Assembly (NCBI GenBank): GCA_945870555.1
Contig: CAMBSI010000003.1
Location: 1 to 56,174, forward strand
From: Staphylococcus epidermidis
Lineage (GTDB): Bacteria; Bacillota_I; Bacilli_A; RFN20; CAG-826
Direction of reading: 5' to 3'
DNA: 56,174 nt
Translations under genes and position numbers: made by a program
Shown: piece after piece, positions 18 through 46,013 of the stretch
How the letters are laid out: every line of letters begins with the position of its first letter
How positions within the stretch are numbered: the first letter of the stretch is position 1
The notes under the pieces: generated by a model
Database searches by the model: none
The model's input: only the letters and a program-made list of their open reading frames with translations
Told to the model about the DNA's origin: nothing

Positions 18-1988
18 TTGAAAAGTTGGGGTTTCTTTCTTGTTTGTTTATCGATTGTCCTCGCGACGATCAGGCCGCATTGGATTTGGTATTTGTTTTC
101 CGGAATCAGCTGTTTTATTTTATGGTTTCAATATCGATCATTAAGAAAATGGTTTTTAATGTGGATGATGTTGTGGTTCGGTATCCAAACCCTTGCAAAC
201 ATTATCCTACAAAACCAAAAGGAAATTTATGTGGTGGTTGACCGGCGTGACACATGGATGATTGTAAGGAATGGAAATGGGCGATACTTTGTTGAAACGG
301 TGATAGATGACCCTTATCAATGGGGTGATTTTTTAGGATTATCCGTCAACATAAGGCCCTTGGCATTCACAACTTATGAAGGTAAATTTAATTTTGTTTC
401 ATACCTCAATGAGCGTGGGGTTACCCAGCAATTAACCATCGTGAAAAGTCGGATAGTTTTTGCGTTTCCCATCAGAACAAGACGTATCATCGATCATCGA
501 CTCAATCAGTTACAACCCGAAACCAGTCATCTTGTTTCCTTGCTTTTGTTCAATCGATCTCGTGGTGAAGGGCAACCAAGTATCCTTCAAGAGTTATTCA
601 CGATGTCAGGATTAGGTTTTTATTTACTATGGTCTGTGTTACTTAAATGCTTCATGATTCGATTTGATGAACATCAGTCACGATTCATCTTGTTGGGTTT
701 CTTTCTTCCATATTTAATATTATCAATTGGCCATTGGTCATTCTTGAGAATTTATCTTTTAGAAACACTACGATGGACGTTTAAATCGAAAGGGATTCAA
801 CCGATTAAAGGTTATGGATTAGCATTCTTTTCCATGATCAATCCATATTATTGGATTCAACCAGGAGGAAAAATTTATTTAGCATTCCAAGCTTTTATCC
901 TATTCATCCTACCTTTACTTCAAATGAAGAAAAGGTTAGGTCGATGGCTGGCCTTTAGCAGCATGTCTTTTTTATGGGAATGGATGAATGAAGGAACCAT
1001 CAGCATCATCCAAACCATGTTGTTCGCGCCGATGGCCATGATTCAAATTTGGTTCATTCCAGGGTGGGTAATCTACTTGTATTTTGGCATCGAGATTCCT
1101 CTCTTGGCTTGGTTAACAAAACGTATAAGTGAGATGATCCTGTACATTCCAAACCTTTCACCCATCTATTTAGGCCTCCTGAATCCGTGGTTAATGTGGA
1201 TGCTTTTGATATTTATATTCCTATGGTTGTGGTTTCAATGGTTAAAATTAACCATCCATAAGCATCATGTGTTGATGATGGGTTTAATTCTACTCACCGT
1301 CCATATGAGTAACTTGGACCAACGTTTCGTGAGTTATGTTGATTTTCTAAATGTAGGTCAAGGCGATGCCACGCTCGTCTATTCACATGGTCAATCCTTA
1401 TTAATTGATACGGGTGGAGTCAAACAATTTGATATTGCAAAAGAAGTTTTAATTCCTTACTTGCGCAAGCAACGCATTCGGCATTTGGATTACCTCATCA
1501 TTACCCATAATGATTTCGACCATAATGGCGGACTTGAATCCCTCCTTAAACACTTCCATGTTAAAAACCTCATCATGGCAACCTTCCAACCCTTCAAACT
1601 TGGGCGAATGGTCATCACCAATTATCAACAATATTGGCCTTCTTTAATTGAGGATAATGAGCGATCCTTAATGGTGGGGATTGAAGCGGTTGATTGCCGC
1701 TGGCTTGTCATGGGAGATGCGACAATCAAGACGGAGGCATTATTACTAAGTGATTTTCCAAATTTAAAAGCGAATGTATTGAGGATTGGCCATCATGGTT
1801 CGAATACCTCGACATCCGATGACTTATTAAACCAACTTCAAGTCAAGCATGCAGTAATTTCAAGTGGAGGAGGAAATCGCTATGGGCATCCCCATCCAGA
1901 AGTGATGGAACGGTTAAATGCGAGGGACATTCAGATTCGCCGCACCGATTTAGAGGGGACAATCCGCTATCAAACGTGTAAAATATAA
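18..1988 (+). CDS. comEC: ComEC/Rec2 DNA-uptake membrane protein with C-terminal metallo-beta-lactamase domain (may extend 5' beyond the window)
   Basis: Multi-TM central region followed by MBL motifs VDFLNVGQGDA, LIDTGG, THNDFDH, GHHGS, YGHPH; directly upstream of holA as in Bacilli. The frame is open back to base 3, so the TTG start is uncertain. Confidence 0.9.
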   Translation: MKSWGFFLVCLSIVLATIRPHWIWYLFSGISCFILWFQYRSLRKWFLMWMMLWFGIQTLANIILQNQKEIYVVVDRRDTWMIVRNGNGRYFVETVIDDPYQWGDFLGLSVNIRPLAFTTYEGKFNFVSYLNERGVTQQLTIVKSRIVFAFPIRTRRIIDHRLNQLQPETSHLVSLLLFNRSRGEGQPSILQELFTMSGLGFYLLWSVLLKCFMIRFDEHQSRFILLGFFLPYLILSIGHWSFLRIYLLETLRWTFKSKGIQPIKGYGLAFFSMINPYYWIQPGGKIYLAFQAFILFILPLLQMKKRLGRWLAFSSMSFLWEWMNEGTISIIQTMLFAPMAMIQIWFIPGWVIYLYFGIEIPLLAWLTKRISEMILYIPNLSPIYLGLLNPWLMWMLLIFIFLWLWFQWLKLTIHKHHVLMMGLILLTVHMSNLDQRFVSYVDFLNVGQGDATLVYSHGQSLLIDTGGVKQFDIAKEVLIPYLRKQRIRHLDYLIITHNDFDHNGGLESLLKHFHVKNLIMATFQPFKLGRMVITNYQQYWPSLIEDNERSLMVGIEAVDCRWLVMGDATIKTEALLLSDFPNLKANVLRIGHHGSNTSTSDDLLNQLQVKHAVISSGGGNRYGHPHPEVMERLNARDIQIRRTDLEGTIRYQTCKI

Positions 1989-1990
1989 TC

Positions 1991-2950
1991 ATGATTCGAT
2001 TAATCACATCCCCATCATTCCAATTGCTTGATCAACAACTCAAGCAAATCTTATCAACCTATCCTAAAACAACGACAATCGAAACCGTCGATGCCTCGAA
2101 CACAGGTATGGCTCAATGGTTACAAGAGATCACCCAACCAAGCCTATGGTCGGAAGCAAAAGTGGTGGTGGTTTATCAAGCATATTTCTTTGCGGGTACG
2201 ACGGTAAAAGGTTTAGCCAAAACCAAAGACGAAGAACCACTGGTGTCATTTTTAGAGCAAAAGGATTATCCAACGGATGTGATCTTTACGTATCAAGGTG
2301 ACGTAGACGAACGTCTTACCTTCATGAAACTCATCAAAAAACATCATGAATGGATTGCCTTACCAATTGAGAAAAAAGACATGTGGTCATCGTTATTCAT
2401 TCGTTGGCAAAAGCAACTTGAGGTTAACCTCAATTCAAAAGCTTTAATGACACTCATTGATTTAACCTTCCCTGATTTGGATCGCGCATATCAAGAATTA
2501 AAAAAGTTAAGCGTTTATGGCAAAGACATTAACGAAACCACCGTTCGCAACTTGGTATCTGCAAACTTAGATGACAATGTCTTTGCGTTAACGAACCATT
2601 TGATGGCGGATTCCCTACAAGGAGCGTTAACCTCATTAAAAGATTTAATGACGTTACAAGTTGAACCAACGTTACTGATTAGCCTAATTGGAAAACATTT
2701 TCAATTGTTTGCAAAAGTGACGCATCTATTAACTCAGTCCATGGATACTTTTCAAATGAGCCAAACCCTTAAAGTGCATGAATTTCGAATTCGTTTAATG
2801 TCGCAAGCTAAAAAACGATTTCCTATCCGAAGAATTAACCACATTTTATTAAGTTTAGATGCATTGGATGAATCCATTAAAAAAGGCCGCCAAGATAAAG
2901 TGGAGGCCCTGAGTTGGTGGATTGTTAACTTTAATACGATTACTTCTTAA
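1991..2950 (+). CDS. holA: DNA polymerase III delta subunit
   Basis: 319 aa; QELKKLSVY, DNVFALT and EPTLLISLI patterns typical of HolA; comEC-holA synteny. Confidence 0.88.
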   Translation: MIRLITSPSFQLLDQQLKQILSTYPKTTTIETVDASNTGMAQWLQEITQPSLWSEAKVVVVYQAYFFAGTTVKGLAKTKDEEPLVSFLEQKDYPTDVIFTYQGDVDERLTFMKLIKKHHEWIALPIEKKDMWSSLFIRWQKQLEVNLNSKALMTLIDLTFPDLDRAYQELKKLSVYGKDINETTVRNLVSANLDDNVFALTNHLMADSLQGALTSLKDLMTLQVEPTLLISLIGKHFQLFAKVTHLLTQSMDTFQMSQTLKVHEFRIRLMSQAKKRFPIRRINHILLSLDALDESIKKGRQDKVEALSWWIVNFNTITS

Positions 2951-3794
2951 GAATACGTTCGTACATCGATGGTCGTCTATCTCGAAAAACGCCCCAAGAA
3001 TAACGTAATTTTTCTAATTCCTTTAAGTCAAACGTTTGGGTGATTAATCCGGTGGTGGTTCGATCCATTTGTTGGAGAATCACACCGTTGTAATTACTAA
3101 TAAAACTGGTTCCATAAAAGGTCATATGATGTTGCCCAAAGGATTCTTTGCCAATCCGGTTGGCAGCAATGACCGGTATCAAATTCGCTGCAGCATGACC
3201 CATCATCGTATTTTGCCAGTGAATTTGCGAATCAATCGGTAAGGTTGGTTCTGACCCAATCGCCGTTGGATATAACAGCATATCCGCACCTTCTAGGGCA
3301 AGGATGCGTGCGACTTCGGGAAACCATTGATCCCAGCAAATGCCAACGCCAATTTTACCAAATTTAGTGGTATACACTTTTAATGGCGTGTCCCCTGGGG
3401 TGAAGTAAAACTTTTCTTGATATGATTCTCCGGTAGGAATATGCATTTTTCGATACTGACCAAGCAAGGTTCCATCTGCATCGATGATGGCAATGGAATT
3501 GTAAAAGACGTTGTTTGCTTTTTCAAAATAAGAAATCGGTAACACCACATTCAATGACTTCGCAAGTTTTTGAAAATAAATCAAATCCTGATTATTTTCA
3601 AAAGGTCTCGCAAGTTCAAAATGATCATAGTTTTCGACTTGGCAAAAATATAAGCCCATAAACAGTTCTGGTAACAAAATAACATTTGAACCTGCTTGCG
3701 CAGCTTGCTTGACAAGTTTAGTCGCAAGGTCAAGATTGACCTGACGTTGTGGGCTCATCGCCATTTGGATGGCAGTTACGGTCACTTTGGACAC
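2940..3794 (-). CDS. aguB: N-carbamoylputrescine amidohydrolase (nitrilase family)
   Basis: E-K-C triad motifs LPELF, YRKMHIP, ICWDQWFPE; GSEP; AANRIG. Start moved to GTG at 3794, one base after the aguA stop and behind AAAGGGG. Confidence 0.92.
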   Translation of the reverse strand: MSKVTVTAIQMAMSPQRQVNLDLATKLVKQAAQAGSNVILLPELFMGLYFCQVENYDHFELARPFENNQDLIYFQKLAKSLNVVLPISYFEKANNVFYNSIAIIDADGTLLGQYRKMHIPTGESYQEKFYFTPGDTPLKVYTTKFGKIGVGICWDQWFPEVARILALEGADMLLYPTAIGSEPTLPIDSQIHWQNTMMGHAAANLIPVIAANRIGKESFGQHHMTFYGTSFISNYNGVILQQMDRTTTGLITQTFDLKELEKLRYSWGVFRDRRPSMYERILKK

Positions 3795-3795
3795 G

Positions 3796-4902
3796 TTAGC
3801 GAACCCCTTTAGGAATTTGTTGAGTGATACAGTGGATGTTTCCTCCACCTAACAAAACTTCTTTACTGTCAATCATGACCACTTTTCGTTTAGGAAAGAC
3901 AGCCTTTAATTGGGCAAGTGCAATCTCGTCAGTTTTTTGATTAAATTTTGGGACAATGACCCCATCATTGACAAAATAAAGGTTAAGGTATGAGGCAGCT
4001 AATCGTTCATTCATGGGGCGATTCTTGCTTTGTGTCCCTGCACCTGGGGTTAAACCTGCAGATTCAAAATAAGTCCGATGAATTGCTTTGGGCATCACCA
4101 CGGTTGAAATTTTTAATGGTTGACCATTGATATCCGTTTGTTGTTTCAGGGCTTCGATGGTCAATAATGACAATGGTTGTTGGGCATCTCGTGGATCAAC
4201 CCCTTCGGCAACAAGGACATGCCCTGGACCAACAAAGGTTGCCACATTATCCACATGTTCCTTGGTTTCATCATTATAAATACCACGCGGTAACCAAATG
4301 ACTTTCTTCGCGCCTAAGGATTCCAATAATTTTGTTTCAATTTGTTTTTTCGTGAGTTTTGGATTTCTGCCTTTATGAAGTAGGTTGTACTCGGTCGCCA
4401 TGACCAATCCTTCTCCATCGACATGAAATGCGCCACCCTCCATCACGAACCCGTCCGTACGGTAGGTGTCTAACTTTAAAATAGAGGCGATTGCCTTCGC
4501 CAATGCGTCATCTTGATCCCACGGTTGATATAAACCGAATTCTTTACCACCATAAGCATTAAATTCCCAATCAACTGCGCGAAACTGACCAAGTTTATTC
4601 TTTAGAATGGTTGGTCCAGTGTCACGAACCCAGGCATCATCGTAAGGAACTTGAAAGAATTCAATATTTTTAATCTTTGTTTTTTGGAAACTTGGCCATA
4701 TAAGAGGATGAACCCCAATCATGACCGGTTCAAACTTTGCAATTTCTTTTGCAATCTTGAGAAACGCTTCTTGGGCTTCTTTCGCTTGATTGCGCCAAAC
4801 GTCACCACGAAAAGGCATGAGCATGAGGGTTGCGTCATGAGCGGAAAACTCCGCCGGCATAAAATACCCGTCTTTAATTGGGTTAAGGAGTTTGGTGTTC
4901 AT
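3796..4902 (-). CDS. aguA: Agmatine deiminase
   Basis: MPAEF, DAWVRDTGP, EGG, HVDN and C-terminal GGGNIHCITQQIP catalytic Cys motif. Confidence 0.95.
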   Translation of the reverse strand: MNTKLLNPIKDGYFMPAEFSAHDATLMLMPFRGDVWRNQAKEAQEAFLKIAKEIAKFEPVMIGVHPLIWPSFQKTKIKNIEFFQVPYDDAWVRDTGPTILKNKLGQFRAVDWEFNAYGGKEFGLYQPWDQDDALAKAIASILKLDTYRTDGFVMEGGAFHVDGEGLVMATEYNLLHKGRNPKLTKKQIETKLLESLGAKKVIWLPRGIYNDETKEHVDNVATFVGPGHVLVAEGVDPRDAQQPLSLLTIEALKQQTDINGQPLKISTVVMPKAIHRTYFESAGLTPGAGTQSKNRPMNERLAASYLNLYFVNDGVIVPKFNQKTDEIALAQLKAVFPKRKVVMIDSKEVLLGGGNIHCITQQIPKGVR

Positions 4903-10150: not shown

Positions 10151-11082
10151 AACGATATGCTATCTTGTTTGCAGGTCAAGGGGCCCAAGCGATTGGGATG
10201 GGTATACAAGCTTTAGCTGCAAGTCCTTATCTGACAAGTTATTTTGAATCGATTCAAAAGCATTTACATTTTGATTTAAAAGCAATCCTAACTGGAGAAA
10301 AACCCGGGTTAAACCAAACCGAGTTTACCCAACCTGCTCTTTTAGCAACTTCTTTACTATATGTTCAACAATTACAACATGAACTGCCGCTTCGTCCATC
10401 GTTCTATTTAGGATTCTCGCTTGGAGAATATACGGCGTTACACGCGAGTGGTCATTTAGATTTACCAAGCACATTAAATTTGATTCAAGTTCGGGCGAAT
10501 GCCATGGCAAAGGCTGGTCTAGAACAACCTGGATCGATGGCAGCGATTATCGGCATGAGCGCAGAGGATTTAAATCGCCTTTGTCTGCAAGTCAATCAAC
10601 CAAATCAAATCGTGATGATTGCAAATTATAATTGTCCTGGTCAATTGGTGATTTCTGGACATCAAGAAGCGGTCAAACAGGTGATGAACTTGGCAACCCA
10701 ACATGGCGCAAAACGCGCCATTGCATTGAATGTTTCTGGAGCCTTTCATTCGCCATTAATGAAACCAGCAGGTTCAGTATTGGCAACCGCATTACCAAAG
10801 TTTCGTTTTTTACCTGCCAAGACCCCAATGATTTTTAATTGGACGGGAAAACCCTTAGCTAACCTAAAGGATTTACCCAATCATTTGATTCAACAAGTCC
10901 AATCGTCAGTATTGTTCGAAAATTCGATTCGCTATGTGGCACAAGAAGGGATTCAAGACTTCCTTGAAATCGGACCAGGTAATGTCTTATCTGGTTTTGT
11001 TAAGAAAATTCTTCCAAGTGCAAACGTGGTTTCTTATAACGGTCTAAGTGACCTTAACTTAGTGAAGGAGTTCATCGCATGA
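10147..11082 (+). CDS. fabD: Malonyl-CoA:ACP transacylase
   Basis: FAGQGAQ, TQPA, GFSLGEY, ANYN, SGAFHS; ATGA overlap with the fabH stop gives start 10147. Confidence 0.96.
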   Translation: MKRYAILFAGQGAQAIGMGIQALAASPYLTSYFESIQKHLHFDLKAILTGEKPGLNQTEFTQPALLATSLLYVQQLQHELPLRPSFYLGFSLGEYTALHASGHLDLPSTLNLIQVRANAMAKAGLEQPGSMAAIIGMSAEDLNRLCLQVNQPNQIVMIANYNCPGQLVISGHQEAVKQVMNLATQHGAKRAIALNVSGAFHSPLMKPAGSVLATALPKFRFLPAKTPMIFNWTGKPLANLKDLPNHLIQQVQSSVLFENSIRYVAQEGIQDFLEIGPGNVLSGFVKKILPSANVVSYNGLSDLNLVKEFIA

Positions 11083-11825
11083 ATGACGTCAAAAAAGTTG
11101 CCATCATCACCGGTGGTGCAACCGGTATTGGTTTAGCAATTAGTCAGCAACTCGCAAATGAAGGTTATTGTGTGGTGGTCAATTACAATGCCTCAAAAGA
11201 TGCTGCTTTAGCGTTTGTTCAATCGGTTCAAGCCAAAGGTGGTCAAGCACTTGCCGTCCAAGCGAATATTAGTCAAGTCAAAGAAGCAGAACAATTGATT
11301 CAAACAACCTTACAAACCTTTAATCGTTTAGACGTGCTTGTCAACAATGCAGGGATTACCGATGACACGTTAATGTTGAGGATGACAGAAGAACAATTTG
11401 ATCGGGTGATTGACACAAACTTAAAGGGCGTTTGGGCGATGTGCAAGTTTGCCTTAAAACCTTTAATGCAAAGTGGCCAAGGCCGGATCATTAATATCGC
11501 ATCCGTTGCAGGCATGATGGGGAATGTTGGCCAAGCCAATTATGCAGCTGCAAAAGCAGGTGTGATTGGCTTAACCAAAACTTTAGCAAGAGAAATGGCT
11601 TCTAGAAATCTAACTGCAAACGTGGTTGCCCCAGGATTTATTGAAACCAAGATGACCGCAGGTTTATCTCCACAAATTAAAGAAGCAGCATTAAATATGA
11701 TTCCCTTAAAACGATTTGGACAACCCGTCGATATTGCAAACATCGTTAGTTTTTTAGCCTCAAGTAAGGCACAATATATAACAGGTCAAACGTTTGTTGT
11801 CGATGGCGGGATGACCATGTACTAA
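11079..11825 (+). CDS. fabG: 3-oxoacyl-ACP reductase
   Basis: SDR motifs TGGATGIG, NNAG, NYAAAK, VDGG within the fab cluster. Confidence 0.96.
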   Translation: MNDVKKVAIITGGATGIGLAISQQLANEGYCVVVNYNASKDAALAFVQSVQAKGGQALAVQANISQVKEAEQLIQTTLQTFNRLDVLVNNAGITDDTLMLRMTEEQFDRVIDTNLKGVWAMCKFALKPLMQSGQGRIINIASVAGMMGNVGQANYAAAKAGVIGLTKTLAREMASRNLTANVVAPGFIETKMTAGLSPQIKEAALNMIPLKRFGQPVDIANIVSFLASSKAQYITGQTFVVDGGMTMY

Positions 11826-20300: not shown

Positions 20301-22106
20301 ATGACATACGACATTAAAAAAATACGTAATTTCTCCATCATTGCGCATATTGACCATGGCAAATCGACATTGGCCGATCGAATTTTGGAATTAACCGGTG
20401 CTGTGAGCAAACGAGAAATGAAAGAACAAATGCTAGATTCCATGGATCTCGAACGTGAACGTGGCATTACCATCAAGTTAACGACTGTAACTTTGCAATA
20501 TAAGTCTCGTGATGGCCAAGAATACACCTTTAATCTCATCGACACCCCAGGGCATGTCGACTTTACCTATGAAGTGTCGCGGTCATTAGCGGCATGTGAA
20601 GGGGCGTTATTAGTCGTGGATGCTTCTCAAGGGGTTGAAGCTCAAACCTTAGCGAATGTGTATTTGGCGGTAGACAACAATCTATGGATCATTCCTTTAA
20701 TTAACAAGGTTGATTTGCCTCAATCGGATCCAGCAAAAGTCAAACTTGAAATTAAAAGACGAATTGGTTTAGATGCAGCGGATGCTTTAGAAATTTCTGG
20801 TAAAACTGGAAAAAATGTCTTAGAAGTGTTGGAAAAAATTATCGTTGAAATTCCCCCACCAGAAGGTGATTACAATGCGCCTTTAAAAGCGCTTATTTTT
20901 GATTCTTTTTATGATGCTTATCGTGGTGTGGTTGCCTTAATTCGTATCAAAGAAGGACATGTCAAAGTCGGAGATTATATTCTCTTGATGGCGTCAGGTC
21001 ATGTCTATCAAGTTACGGAATTGGGCATTTTTCGTCCTCATCAAGAAAAAAAGGATGAATTAGCATCCGGTGAAGTCGGTTATTTGGCGGCGCAAATCAA
21101 AGAGATCAAAGATGTGCGTTCTGGCGAAACCATTACCCTAAGAGACCATGCAGCCACCGAGGCATTACCAGGATATCGTGATTTAAACCCAATGGTTTTC
21201 TGCGGTTTGTTTCCGGTTGATGGTAAAGAGTACCGAGACCTCAAGGACGCATTAGGAAAATTAGCATTAAGCGATGCGAGTTTAAAATTTGAACCAGAAA
21301 CCTCACAAGCTTTAGGCTTTGGCTATCGTTGTGGTTTCTTAGGTTTACTCCATATGGATGTCATCCAAGAACGTTTAGAACGAGAATACAACTTGAATTT
21401 AATCTTAACTGCACCCAGTGTGGTTTACCATGTTCATCTCCACAACGGAGAGATGATCTTGTTAGATAATCCAAACAAATTACCGCAGCTCACGACGATT
21501 AAAGAAATCAGTGAACCTTATGTAAAAGCGACCATTACAACACCAAAAGAATACGTTGGACCATTAATGGAACTTTGCCAAAATCGCCGGGGTATTTATA
21601 CCGAACTTGAATATGTCGATGAAACCCGGATGACCTTACGTTATGAAATCCCTTTAGCAGAAATTGTGTATAACTTTTTTGATAAACTCAAAAGCTTATC
21701 AAAAGGTTATGCTTCTTTTGATTATGTCTTGTCAGATTATAAAGTTGGAAACCTCGCAAAAATGGACATCCTCCTCAATGCCGAAATCATCGATGCGCTT
21801 TCGACGATTGTCCATAAACCATCAGCCTATAATCGGGGAAACTTTATTGTTGAAAAATTGAAAACGATTATCCCACGGCAACAATTTGAAATACCGATTC
21901 AGGCAGCCATCAATGGAAAAGTGATTGCCCGGACGGATATCAAAGCCGTTCGTAAAGATGTTTTAGCCAAGTGTTATGGTGGGGATATTTCCCGTAAACG
22001 TAAATTACTCGATAAGCAAAAAGAAGGCAAGAAGCGAATGAAAAACATCGGTTCAGTTGAAGTACCTCAAGAAGCTTTCATGACGGTTTTATCGATCGAC
22101 GATTGA
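20301..22106 (+). CDS. lepA: Elongation factor 4
   Basis: [41 protein letters not shown]. Confidence 0.99.
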
Positions 22107-44973: not shown

Positions 44974-45036
44974 AACCTCATAGATTAATCAAGGAAGGTA
45001 TGCTATGCTAATTTACGTGCGTTGGAGGATACCAGC

Positions 45037-45186
45037 ATGAGAGAAAGTTTTATGTTAAAGTGCACCGTTTGTGGTGAAGAAAACTATTTAGCAAGCAAAA
45101 ATCGCAGAACAAAACCTGAAAAGATGGAAATCAATAAGTTTTGCAGTCGTTGCAACAAATCAAGCGTTCATAAAGAACGTAAGTAA
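45037..45186 (+). CDS. rpmG: 50S ribosomal protein L33 (Zn-binding form); absent from the ORF track
   Basis: Manual translation MRESFMLKCTVCGEENYLASKNRRTKPEKMEINKFCSRCNKSSVHKERK*; GGAGG SD. Confidence 0.96.
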   Translation: MRESFMLKCTVCGEENYLASKNRRTKPEKMEINKFCSRCNKSSVHKERK

Positions 45187-45218
45187 GACTCACATAAAAG
45201 ATTAGGAGGACCGAATTC

Positions 45219-45776
45219 ATGGTCAATGCAACCGAATTAAGGCCAGGTAACCACTTTGCATTTGAAAAAAACATTTATACGGTGATTGATGTTGGTTTGA
45301 ATAAGACCGCGATGCGTAAAATGGTGGTCAAAGCCAAAGTAAAAAATTTAAGAACTGGTTCGATCACAGAAATGTCATTTTTAGGTGGCACAGATGTTGA
45401 AAAAATCACCTTAGATAAGCGAAGAATGACTTATTTATACGAATCCAATGGTAGCTTGGTTTTTATGGACAAAATTACCTTTGATCAATTAGAAATTACC
45501 AGAGAAAAGTTATCATGGGAAGTTAATTTCTTAGTGACCGAACAAGAAATTGAAATTCTCTTTTATGAAACTGAAATCTTAGGGGTTTCATTACCGGCTA
45601 AAGTTGCCCTCAAAGTCAGTGAATGTGAACCAGCTGTCAAAGGCGACACCATCAATAAAGCAATGAAAGAAGCAACCTTAGAAACGGGCTTTAAATTACG
45701 CGTCCCACTTTTCATCTCCGAAGGCGAAACAATTAGTATTCGCACCGAAGATGGCAGTTATGATGGTCGCGCATAA
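45219..45776 (+). CDS. efp: Elongation factor P with atypical tip loop
   Basis: ELRPG, KNLRTG, YLY, FMD, AVKGDT, KEATLETG, VPLFISEGE, IRTEDGSYDGRA. Confidence 0.95.
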   Translation: MVNATELRPGNHFAFEKNIYTVIDVGLNKTAMRKMVVKAKVKNLRTGSITEMSFLGGTDVEKITLDKRRMTYLYESNGSLVFMDKITFDQLEITREKLSWEVNFLVTEQEIEILFYETEILGVSLPAKVALKVSECEPAVKGDTINKAMKEATLETGFKLRVPLFISEGETISIRTEDGSYDGRA

Positions 45777-45794: not shown

Positions 45795-46013
45795 ATGGCA
45801 GATATTTGGCAAACCTTATTGTATCTTGTGATTGGTTTAATTGGCGGTCTCGTCGGTGGATTTTTCTTATCACGTTGGTATTTTAAACGTGAATTAACAA
45901 AGAATCCTCCTATCAATGAAAAAATGATTCGGGCCATGTTCATGCAAATGGGCCGCAAACCAAATGAAGCGCAAGTTCGCGCAGTCATCAATAGCATGAA
46001 TGCTCAAAAATAA
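45795..46013 (+). CDS. yneF: YneF-family small membrane protein
   Basis: GGFFLSR..NPPINEKMIRAMFMQMGRKP. Confidence 0.93.
   Translation: MADIWQTLLYLVIGLIGGLVGGFFLSRWYFKRELTKNPPINEKMIRAMFMQMGRKPNEAQVRAVINSMNAQK

Follow-up and report, generated by a model that had tools for sequence, protein, structure and literature searches.

The locus described here raises the question of whether a bacterial elongation factor P (EF-P) can work with methionine at the position that carries a modified Lys or Arg in other EF-Ps. The gene concerned, efp, lies at 45219-45776 (+) of the window, i.e., the entire 56,174-nucleotide stretch of DNA that was analyzed. It is an intact open reading frame (ORF) for a protein of 185 amino acids, with a Shine-Dalgarno sequence (AGGAGG, 45204-45209, +, read from the sequence) 9 nt 5' of its ATG. 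The product is a true EF-P. The family has a three-domain architecture with a KOW-like domain I and OB-type domains II and III; the corresponding Pfam domains (PF08207, PF01132, and PF09285) all score above their cut-offs, and the NCBIfam EF-P equivalog TIGR00038 is matched with 204.3 bits (cut-off 185.8). The domain-III loop motif G142-D143-T144 (45642-45650, +; codons GGC GAC ACC) and the C-terminal Y/R are present and conserved in the subfamily, in the alignment of which G142, T144, and Y181 are invariant and R184 is nearly so. Established structures tie the G-D-T motif and the C-terminal Y/R to contacts with the 30S subunit and the E-site codon. The membership feature that is replaced is the Lys/Arg at the beta3/beta4 tip, where both the alignment and the structural model have Met32; a Lys/Arg tip is typical of about 96% of EF-P members and is not demanded by the family models.

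The tip loop corresponds to residues N28-K29-T30-A31-M32-R33-K34-M35 (45300-45323, +; codons AAT AAG ACC GCG ATG CGT AAA ATG), which take the place of V-K-P-G-K-G-A-A in canonical EF-Ps. A preliminary description of this DNA had held that the PGKG motif is gone, with residues 27-35 reading LNKTAMRKM instead, and that Met32 (ATG, 45312-45314, +) aligns without gaps with Lys32. Both points were borne out. By HMMER, residues 1-184 align without a gap to the EF-Ps of Staphylococcus aureus (6rk3/6rji, E 3e-41) and Thermus thermophilus, and the segment HVKPGKGSAFV of S. aureus 6rk3 stands opposite GLNKTAMRKMVV of the query, such that N28 to M35 face V-K-P-G-K32-G-S-A. Given this gapless alignment to solved EF-Ps, Met32 corresponds to the residue that is modified as Lys32, Lys34, or Arg32 elsewhere. 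An AlphaFold2 model built from 34 homologs (mean pLDDT 88; TM 0.8-0.9 to solved EF-P structures) has strands at residues 18-29 and 35-43, which leaves T30-A31-M32-R33-K34 as the loop and predicts Met32 as the center of this five-residue beta3/beta4 turn.

Tip residues have been cataloged for 1,166 EF-Ps, among which K accounts for 81.11%, R for 14.75%, N for 2.23%, M for 0.77%, Q for 0.6%, and A for 0.51%, and a Met tip never occurs together with Pro at position -2 (Volkwein et al., 2019; PMC6544042). The supplementary tables of that work include the T/M types of Ureaplasma (SFNKTAMREG) and Mycoplasma (SFNKTAMRGG), which lack EpmA/EarP (PMC6544042). Modification enzymes are lacking in Mollicutes, all of which retain EF-P (Grosjean et al., 2014). 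Beyond the 2019 catalog and a negative result with an engineered Escherichia coli protein (K34M), no literature on a characterized native Met-tip EF-P was found. The protein studied here has a Met tip and no Pro at -2, and neither EpmA nor EarP was found in the genomes searched (0/41 for both). It belongs to this cataloged, uncharacterized subtype.

Conservation of the loop is high at every scale sampled. Among the best 120 of 1,569 homologs (61-92% identity), NKTAM is present in all full-length proteins save for single-residue variants, and nearly all of these 120 read LNKTAMRKM or LNKTAMAKM. In an alignment of 34 homologs (61-91% identity; mean column identity 76%), seven of the eight loop positions (N28, K29, T30, A31, M32, K34, and M35) are invariant, and the loop is therefore not a feature of chance or error. 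When one genome per GTDB species was scanned for the NKTAM pattern, at least 599 matches were obtained, at least 591 of them confirmed relatives. Titles among the matches listed include river and lake Bacilli/Bacillota MAGs, the closest of these at 96% identity, as well as 'uncultured Mollicutes', Erysipelotrichales/Erysipelotrichaceae, Thomasclavelia, Coprobacillus, Solobacterium, and Traorella. Within the class, a degenerate DNA pattern (NKTAM-x7-K-xx-N) matched 78 of 401 evenly drawn genomes, once in each, and the reversed control pattern gave one hit in total. By group, matches were found in 39 of 41 genomes of the same family, in all nine sampled genomes of families f7 and f8 of the same order, and in 29 of 38 genomes of family f11; one Ureaplasma-like genome also matched, with NKTAMREGIVKCKVKN. 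The DNA of these matches draws on all four codons for Thr and for Ala although the encoded peptide is unchanged, which indicates that selection, rather than recent shared ancestry, maintains it. Strong purifying selection acts on the tip loop.

Since the Met tip is the norm in hundreds of small-genome Bacilli, it characterizes the lineage as a whole rather than this genome in particular, and the Met-tip protein is the standard EF-P of large Bacilli lineages. These counts (at least 591 GTDB species genomes and 78 of 401 class genomes) supply the survey of loop distribution that the preliminary description had proposed. They also remove any novelty of the variant for this genome, as it is both lineage-wide and cataloged (PMC6544042).

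The history of the loop was examined with a maximum-likelihood tree of 129 EF-Ps from which the loop columns had been removed. The query falls in a starred Met-tip clade, which is joined by NKTAMRQM and by the Arg-tip NK[ST]ARGQM sequences of the same-order family f2 to form a starred clade of 17 rows. The starred clade of 31 rows that encloses these consists solely of Arg- or Met-tip loops without Pro and is separate from the PGKG Lys types. A Gln-tip version (NKTAQRQ) was found on the same scaffold among the representative clusters. Judged from these sequences, there appears to be a loop lineage that is free of Pro and Gly and follows N-K-[T/S]-A-x-[R/G/A]-x-M, where the tip x is Arg, Gln, or Met depending on the clade and is Met in the clade of the query. 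On this one scaffold, the tip residue has changed among Arg, Met, and Gln, all with long unbranched side chains. These changes fit the ancestral states reconstructed by Volkwein et al. (2019; PMC6544042), which run from K to R and on to N/Q/M. The residue that follows the tip is more variable: of the 228 distinct NKTAM sequences, 204 have Arg at residue 33, 23 have Ala, and one has Ser. In 21 of the 23 Ala33 sequences, position 36 is Lys in place of Val/Ile (residues 33-36; window 45315-45329). This pairing may represent charge compensation within the hairpin, the counts being uncorrected for shared ancestry.

The gene is the only efp match in its own genome, an assembly of 0.92 Mb in 59 contigs that is 82% complete. 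A match was found in 57 of 60 relatives, including all 40 of high quality (genomes of about 1 Mb). Same-genus genomes with a match have exactly one efp each, and four of these are at least 90% complete. A second efp, for which the preliminary description had advised a search, was found neither in the own genome at its 82% completeness nor in any same-genus genome with a match. A second canonical efp was rejected as a candidate; within the order, extra PGKG copies are confined to genus g28, which belongs to another family.

Known modification enzymes were sought with profile models, and EpmA, EpmB, EarP, deoxyhypusine synthase (DHS), YmfI, and YnbB were all rejected as candidates; EpmA, EpmB, EarP, and YmfI are among the enzymes that the preliminary description had named. 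For EpmA (TIGR00462), none of 41 genomes exceeded the cut-off; hits below it were LysRS, AsnRS, and AspRS, and the positive control worked. EpmB (TIGR03821) was absent above the cut-off from 26 genomes, with a positive E. coli control, and DHS (PF01916) had no match in 26 genomes, with positive controls in six genomes. EarP (PF10093) had no match in 41 genomes; this absence is weak by itself because no control genome carried EarP. YmfI (NF047420) was absent above the cut-off from 21 genomes, and the YnbB family (PF06838) was missing from the own genome and all Met-type relatives, with a positive Bacillus subtilis control in both cases. The best match to the YmfI model in the own genome lies in the window at 11079-11825 (+) and reaches 207 bits against a cut-off of 238. 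It was rejected as YmfI, being FabG (TIGR01830, 313.8 bits vs. 297.75) located between fabD and fabF. In an automatic search, this FabG could pass for an EF-P modification enzyme.

With its Met tip and this set of absences, the protein falls outside the known modified types of EF-P. Beta-lysylation is linked to a PGKG loop with EpmA/EpmB, the 5-aminopentanol type to Lys32 in PGKG with YmfI/YnbB, EarP rhamnosylation to an Arg tip in K-S-G-R-N with EarP, and the DHS-linked type to a Lys or Asn tip with a DHS homolog.

Three relatives provide an internal contrast. Two efp genes were found only in these genomes, all of genus g28 (family f2), which have a native NKSARGQM version together with a canonical HVKPGKGAA version. 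The PGKG efp is followed directly by a YmfI-like SDR gene (NF047420, 166-171 bits, cut-off 238) and by a PF06838 YnbB-family gene (535 bits). These loci are at 870-3421 (-) in L117 (genome G044, C24:243000-248500), at 1987-4578 (+) in L118 (genome G050, C1:10500-16000), and at C11:18399-20921 in genome G060. Among the 61 genomes, PF06838 is limited to these three. The contrast indicates that, within the order, Lys-tip efp genes are accompanied by modification-type genes, whereas the native Met- or Arg-tip efp occurs without any. The g28 module resembles a Lys-type efp with 5-aminopentanol-type modification and was possibly acquired horizontally. In the extra PGKG copies of G050 (L084) and G060 (L090), the domain-III G-D-T is lost, as PAIKSASTNATK and PPIKVASANATK replace KGDT. 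These extra copies may thus not be fully canonical EF-Ps.

The reading that we consider probable is that the gene encodes a sole housekeeping Met-tip EF-P that is functional and needs no modification. The host would be an uncultured member of the Bacilli, about 1 Mb in genome size, with this gene as its only housekeeping EF-P. The protein would bind between the E and P sites as any EF-P does, with recognition of the tRNAPro D-arm and the domain-III contacts kept. The side chain of Met32, which is long, unbranched, flexible, and uncharged, would pack on the CCA end where other EF-Ps use a modified Lys or Arg. Positive charge would come from the flanking K29 and R33/K34, or from K36 where residue 33 is Ala, and post-translational modification would be unnecessary. 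We infer that polyproline-stall rescue occurs in the unmodified state and that Met32 and the flanking basic residues have these roles. The preliminary description had proposed a modification-independent EF-P in which Met32 and Arg33 contact the CCA end. Its first part stands in that no known modification enzymes were found, but Arg33 is not an obligatory contact, as Ala or Ser takes its place in 24 of 228 distinct NKTAM sequences. That such a protein would spare the cell a modification pathway, as the preliminary description suggested, is a plausible rationale.

Clients and tRNA partners for such an EF-P are in place. LepA (window 20301-22106) contains EIPPPEG, the PPP of which (residues 185-187; codons at 20853-20861, +) belongs to the five PPP motifs found genome-wide and marks LepA as a likely EF-P client. 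This target had been pointed out in the preliminary description and was confirmed by a proteome scan, which adds the conserved motifs of ValS (IPPPNVTG), IleS (GPPYANG), and Lon and FtsH (both GPPGxGKT). Conserved PP/PPP motifs of this kind are lost where EF-P is dysfunctional (Brewer and Wagner, 2024; PMC11388002). The three tRNAPro genes (CGG, GGG, and UGG; C4:44341-44417, C33:6742-6818, and 3722-3798 on a third contig) share a D-arm in which a D-stem of 4 bp carries a 9-nt D-loop (AGCUUGGUA or AGUUUGGUA). This D-arm signature is the EF-P recognition element reported by Katoh et al. (2016; PMC4890201).

The same proteome also bears on an alternative that we regard as unlikely, namely that the EF-P is attenuated. 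It would bind the ribosome but have lost most polyproline rescue, strong stallers would have been purged, and the cell would rely on YebC-family/ABCF proteins, with a residual or other role left to EF-P, e.g., first peptide bond formation or general E-site occupancy. In a crude ORF call (889 ORFs), PP occurs 272 times against 478 expected (57%) and PPP five times against 19 (26%), with expectations taken from the proteome's own composition. By context, the most depleted motifs are APP (observed/expected 0.16), PPW (0.37), DPP (0.43), and PPP (0.46), and LPP is enriched (1.89). Depletion of strong stallers is, however, a general trend across bacteria. A YebC/PF01709-family gene (136.9 bits) is also present at C2:4208-4663 (+) (L116). 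Members of the YebC family have recently been linked to the relief of polyproline stalls, and the protein may thus share the load with EF-P. The low polyproline load, with the strongest stalling contexts depleted, and the part of the rescue that a YebC-family protein could carry both count against the preferred reading. The inactivity of E. coli EF-P K34M in vivo, shared by K34A/N/Q, does so as well, since Met alone is no substitute for Lys in a PGKG loop (PMC6544042); it implies that the context of the whole loop must matter. Attenuation is nevertheless difficult to reconcile with other observations. Within domain I, conservation is highest in the tip loop, with seven of eight positions invariant over 61-91% identity, which would be unexpected for an idle loop; efp is kept in all 40 high-quality reduced genomes; and ValS, IleS, Lon, FtsH, and LepA still carry their universally conserved PP/PPP motifs.

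The gene neighborhood is relevant to a further alternative, in which the EF-P is modified after all by an enzyme outside the known types that acts on K29, R33, K34, or the Met thioether. Along the DNA, the genes follow one another as dnaG, sigA, trmK, NIF3, DEAD-box helicase, nfo, rpmG, efp, UPF0154, plsY (-), parE, and parC, and this housekeeping block contains no candidate modifier gene beside efp. Directly 5' of efp is rpmG for ribosomal protein bL33 (45022-45186, +; Pfam Ribosomal_L33, 63.6 bits). Its listed TTG start is probably too long because the Pfam match begins at residue 11, and the true start is probably an internal ATG. The UPF0154 small membrane protein gene (45795-46013, +; PF03672, 105 bits) lies 19 nt 3' of efp, adjoins it in 49 of 80 related loci by neighborhood clustering, and is probably co-transcribed with it. 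In 54 of 80 Met-type related loci, the gene immediately 5' of efp encodes an MBL-fold hydrolase (GloB-like, THGHFDH; loci L002-L081, about 600-700 nt 5' of efp, e.g., L048 2362-3000). As tblastn found no homolog in the own genome (82% complete), this hydrolase was rejected as an obligatory EF-P partner. IspG and Nfo are also frequent neighbors of efp in related loci.

Modification by such an enzyme appears quite improbable. A modification enzyme of an undescribed type may escape homology searches, and about half of bacterial EF-Ps are of unknown type, with no modification status assigned (Brewer and Wagner, 2024; PMC11388002). K29 is invariant, and digestion with trypsin would leave only very short loop peptides (TAMR and K), such that a modification would probably escape standard proteomics. 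Nevertheless, no conserved candidate gene adjoins efp (nfo, rpmG, UPF0154, plsY, parE), and the extra neighbor that is frequent in relatives is the hydrolase that the own genome lacks. As for the residues, K29 is conserved in nearly all EF-Ps regardless of modification, R33 gives way to Ala/Ser in 24 of 228 sequences, and K34 is not conserved in the Mycoplasma/Ureaplasma versions (NKTAMREG, NKTAMRGG).

It would be a very long shot that Met32 is a regulated site, with polyproline translation switched on or off by the reversible formation of methionine sulfoxide, or by an undescribed modification that affects either the thioether or a basic residue beside it. If this were true, proteins such as ValS, IleS, Lon, and FtsH would come under redox- or metabolite-sensitive control in reduced-genome bacteria. 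A register artefact, by which the structural tip is really Arg33 or Lys29 and an ordinary Arg- or Lys-tip EF-P has been misaligned, could draw on the basic residues that flank Met32 and on the somewhat lower pLDDT of the loop (mean 80 over residues 31-40), but it is highly unlikely, and a shift with Arg33 as the tip was rejected, given that the whole of domain I aligns without gaps with three solved EF-Ps, the modeled loop 30-34 is centered on Met32, the sister sequences NK[ST]A-R-GQM put Arg exactly in the Met column, and about 10% of members do without Arg33.

Within this genome, the gene is simply the EF-P usual in its lineage, and the interest lies in the subtype as a whole, which spans at least 591 species and amounts to a natural experiment on whether EF-P requires charge or modification at its tip. 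If the native Met-tip EF-P, preferred here as functional and unmodified, does rescue polyproline stalls, the tip needs to be neither positively charged nor modified, and the Pro/Gly-free NKTA-x loop would be a further working design beside the known types. This bears on how EF-P and eIF5A stabilize the CCA end, on why no modification is known for about half of bacterial EF-Ps, and on how EF-Ps that need no modification could be designed for heterologous expression and minimal cells.

Among known systems, the Met-tip EF-Ps of Mollicutes (Ureaplasma WP_006688853, SFNKTAMREG; Mycoplasma WP_013609371, SFNKTAMRGG) share with the query the core N-K-T-A-M-R, with Thr in place of Pro at -2. Like the query, they are the sole EF-P of a small-genome Bacilli/Mollicutes organism with no EpmA/EarP recorded. 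However, the query loop continues with K-M-V-V, whereas the Mollicutes versions have E/G-G-I/L-V. The query host belongs to a lineage of free-living or environmental MAGs and not to Mycoplasma, and identity to the Mycoplasma-like representative (P0130) is 41%. The Arg-tip EF-Ps (NK[ST]ARGQM of family f2, and the 'T/R' and 'S/R' loops of M. mycoides, Mesoplasma, and Spiroplasma) have a Pro/Gly-free loop of the same length, fall in the same starred clade, and likewise lack EarP, but their tip is Arg instead of Met and the next residue is Gly instead of Arg.

Outside these groups, the closest solved relatives are the Lys32 EF-Ps of B. subtilis and S. aureus, which have the same length, align without gaps, and are 39-42% identical (144 bits to 6rk3). 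In these proteins, Lys32 receives 5-aminopentanol via YmfI, YnbB, and GsaB, whereas the query has Met32, TAMR for PGKG, and no YmfI or YnbB. The EfpL/YeiP paralog has an unmodified Arg tip and the same three-domain fold, and the query is presumably unmodified too. However, EfpL/YeiP has a two-residue loop extension, whereas the query has the canonical loop length, is a sole EF-P and not a paralog, and scores far below the cut-offs of the EfpL/YeiP equivalogs (NF003392, 103.9 vs. 216; TIGR02178, 92.6 vs. 264). EF-Ps of the PGKGP subfamily (Actinobacteria) reportedly work unmodified, according to Pinheiro in 2020 and Tomasiunaite in 2024. The query is probably modification-free as well, and its model superposes on the Corynebacterium glutamicum protein (6S8Z) with a TM of 0.90 to 6s8z. 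The PGKGP subfamily keeps a tip Lys in a rigid, palindromic Pro-Gly-Lys-Gly-Pro loop, whereas the T-A-M-R-K loop of the query has a different makeup, without Pro, Gly, or a tip Lys.
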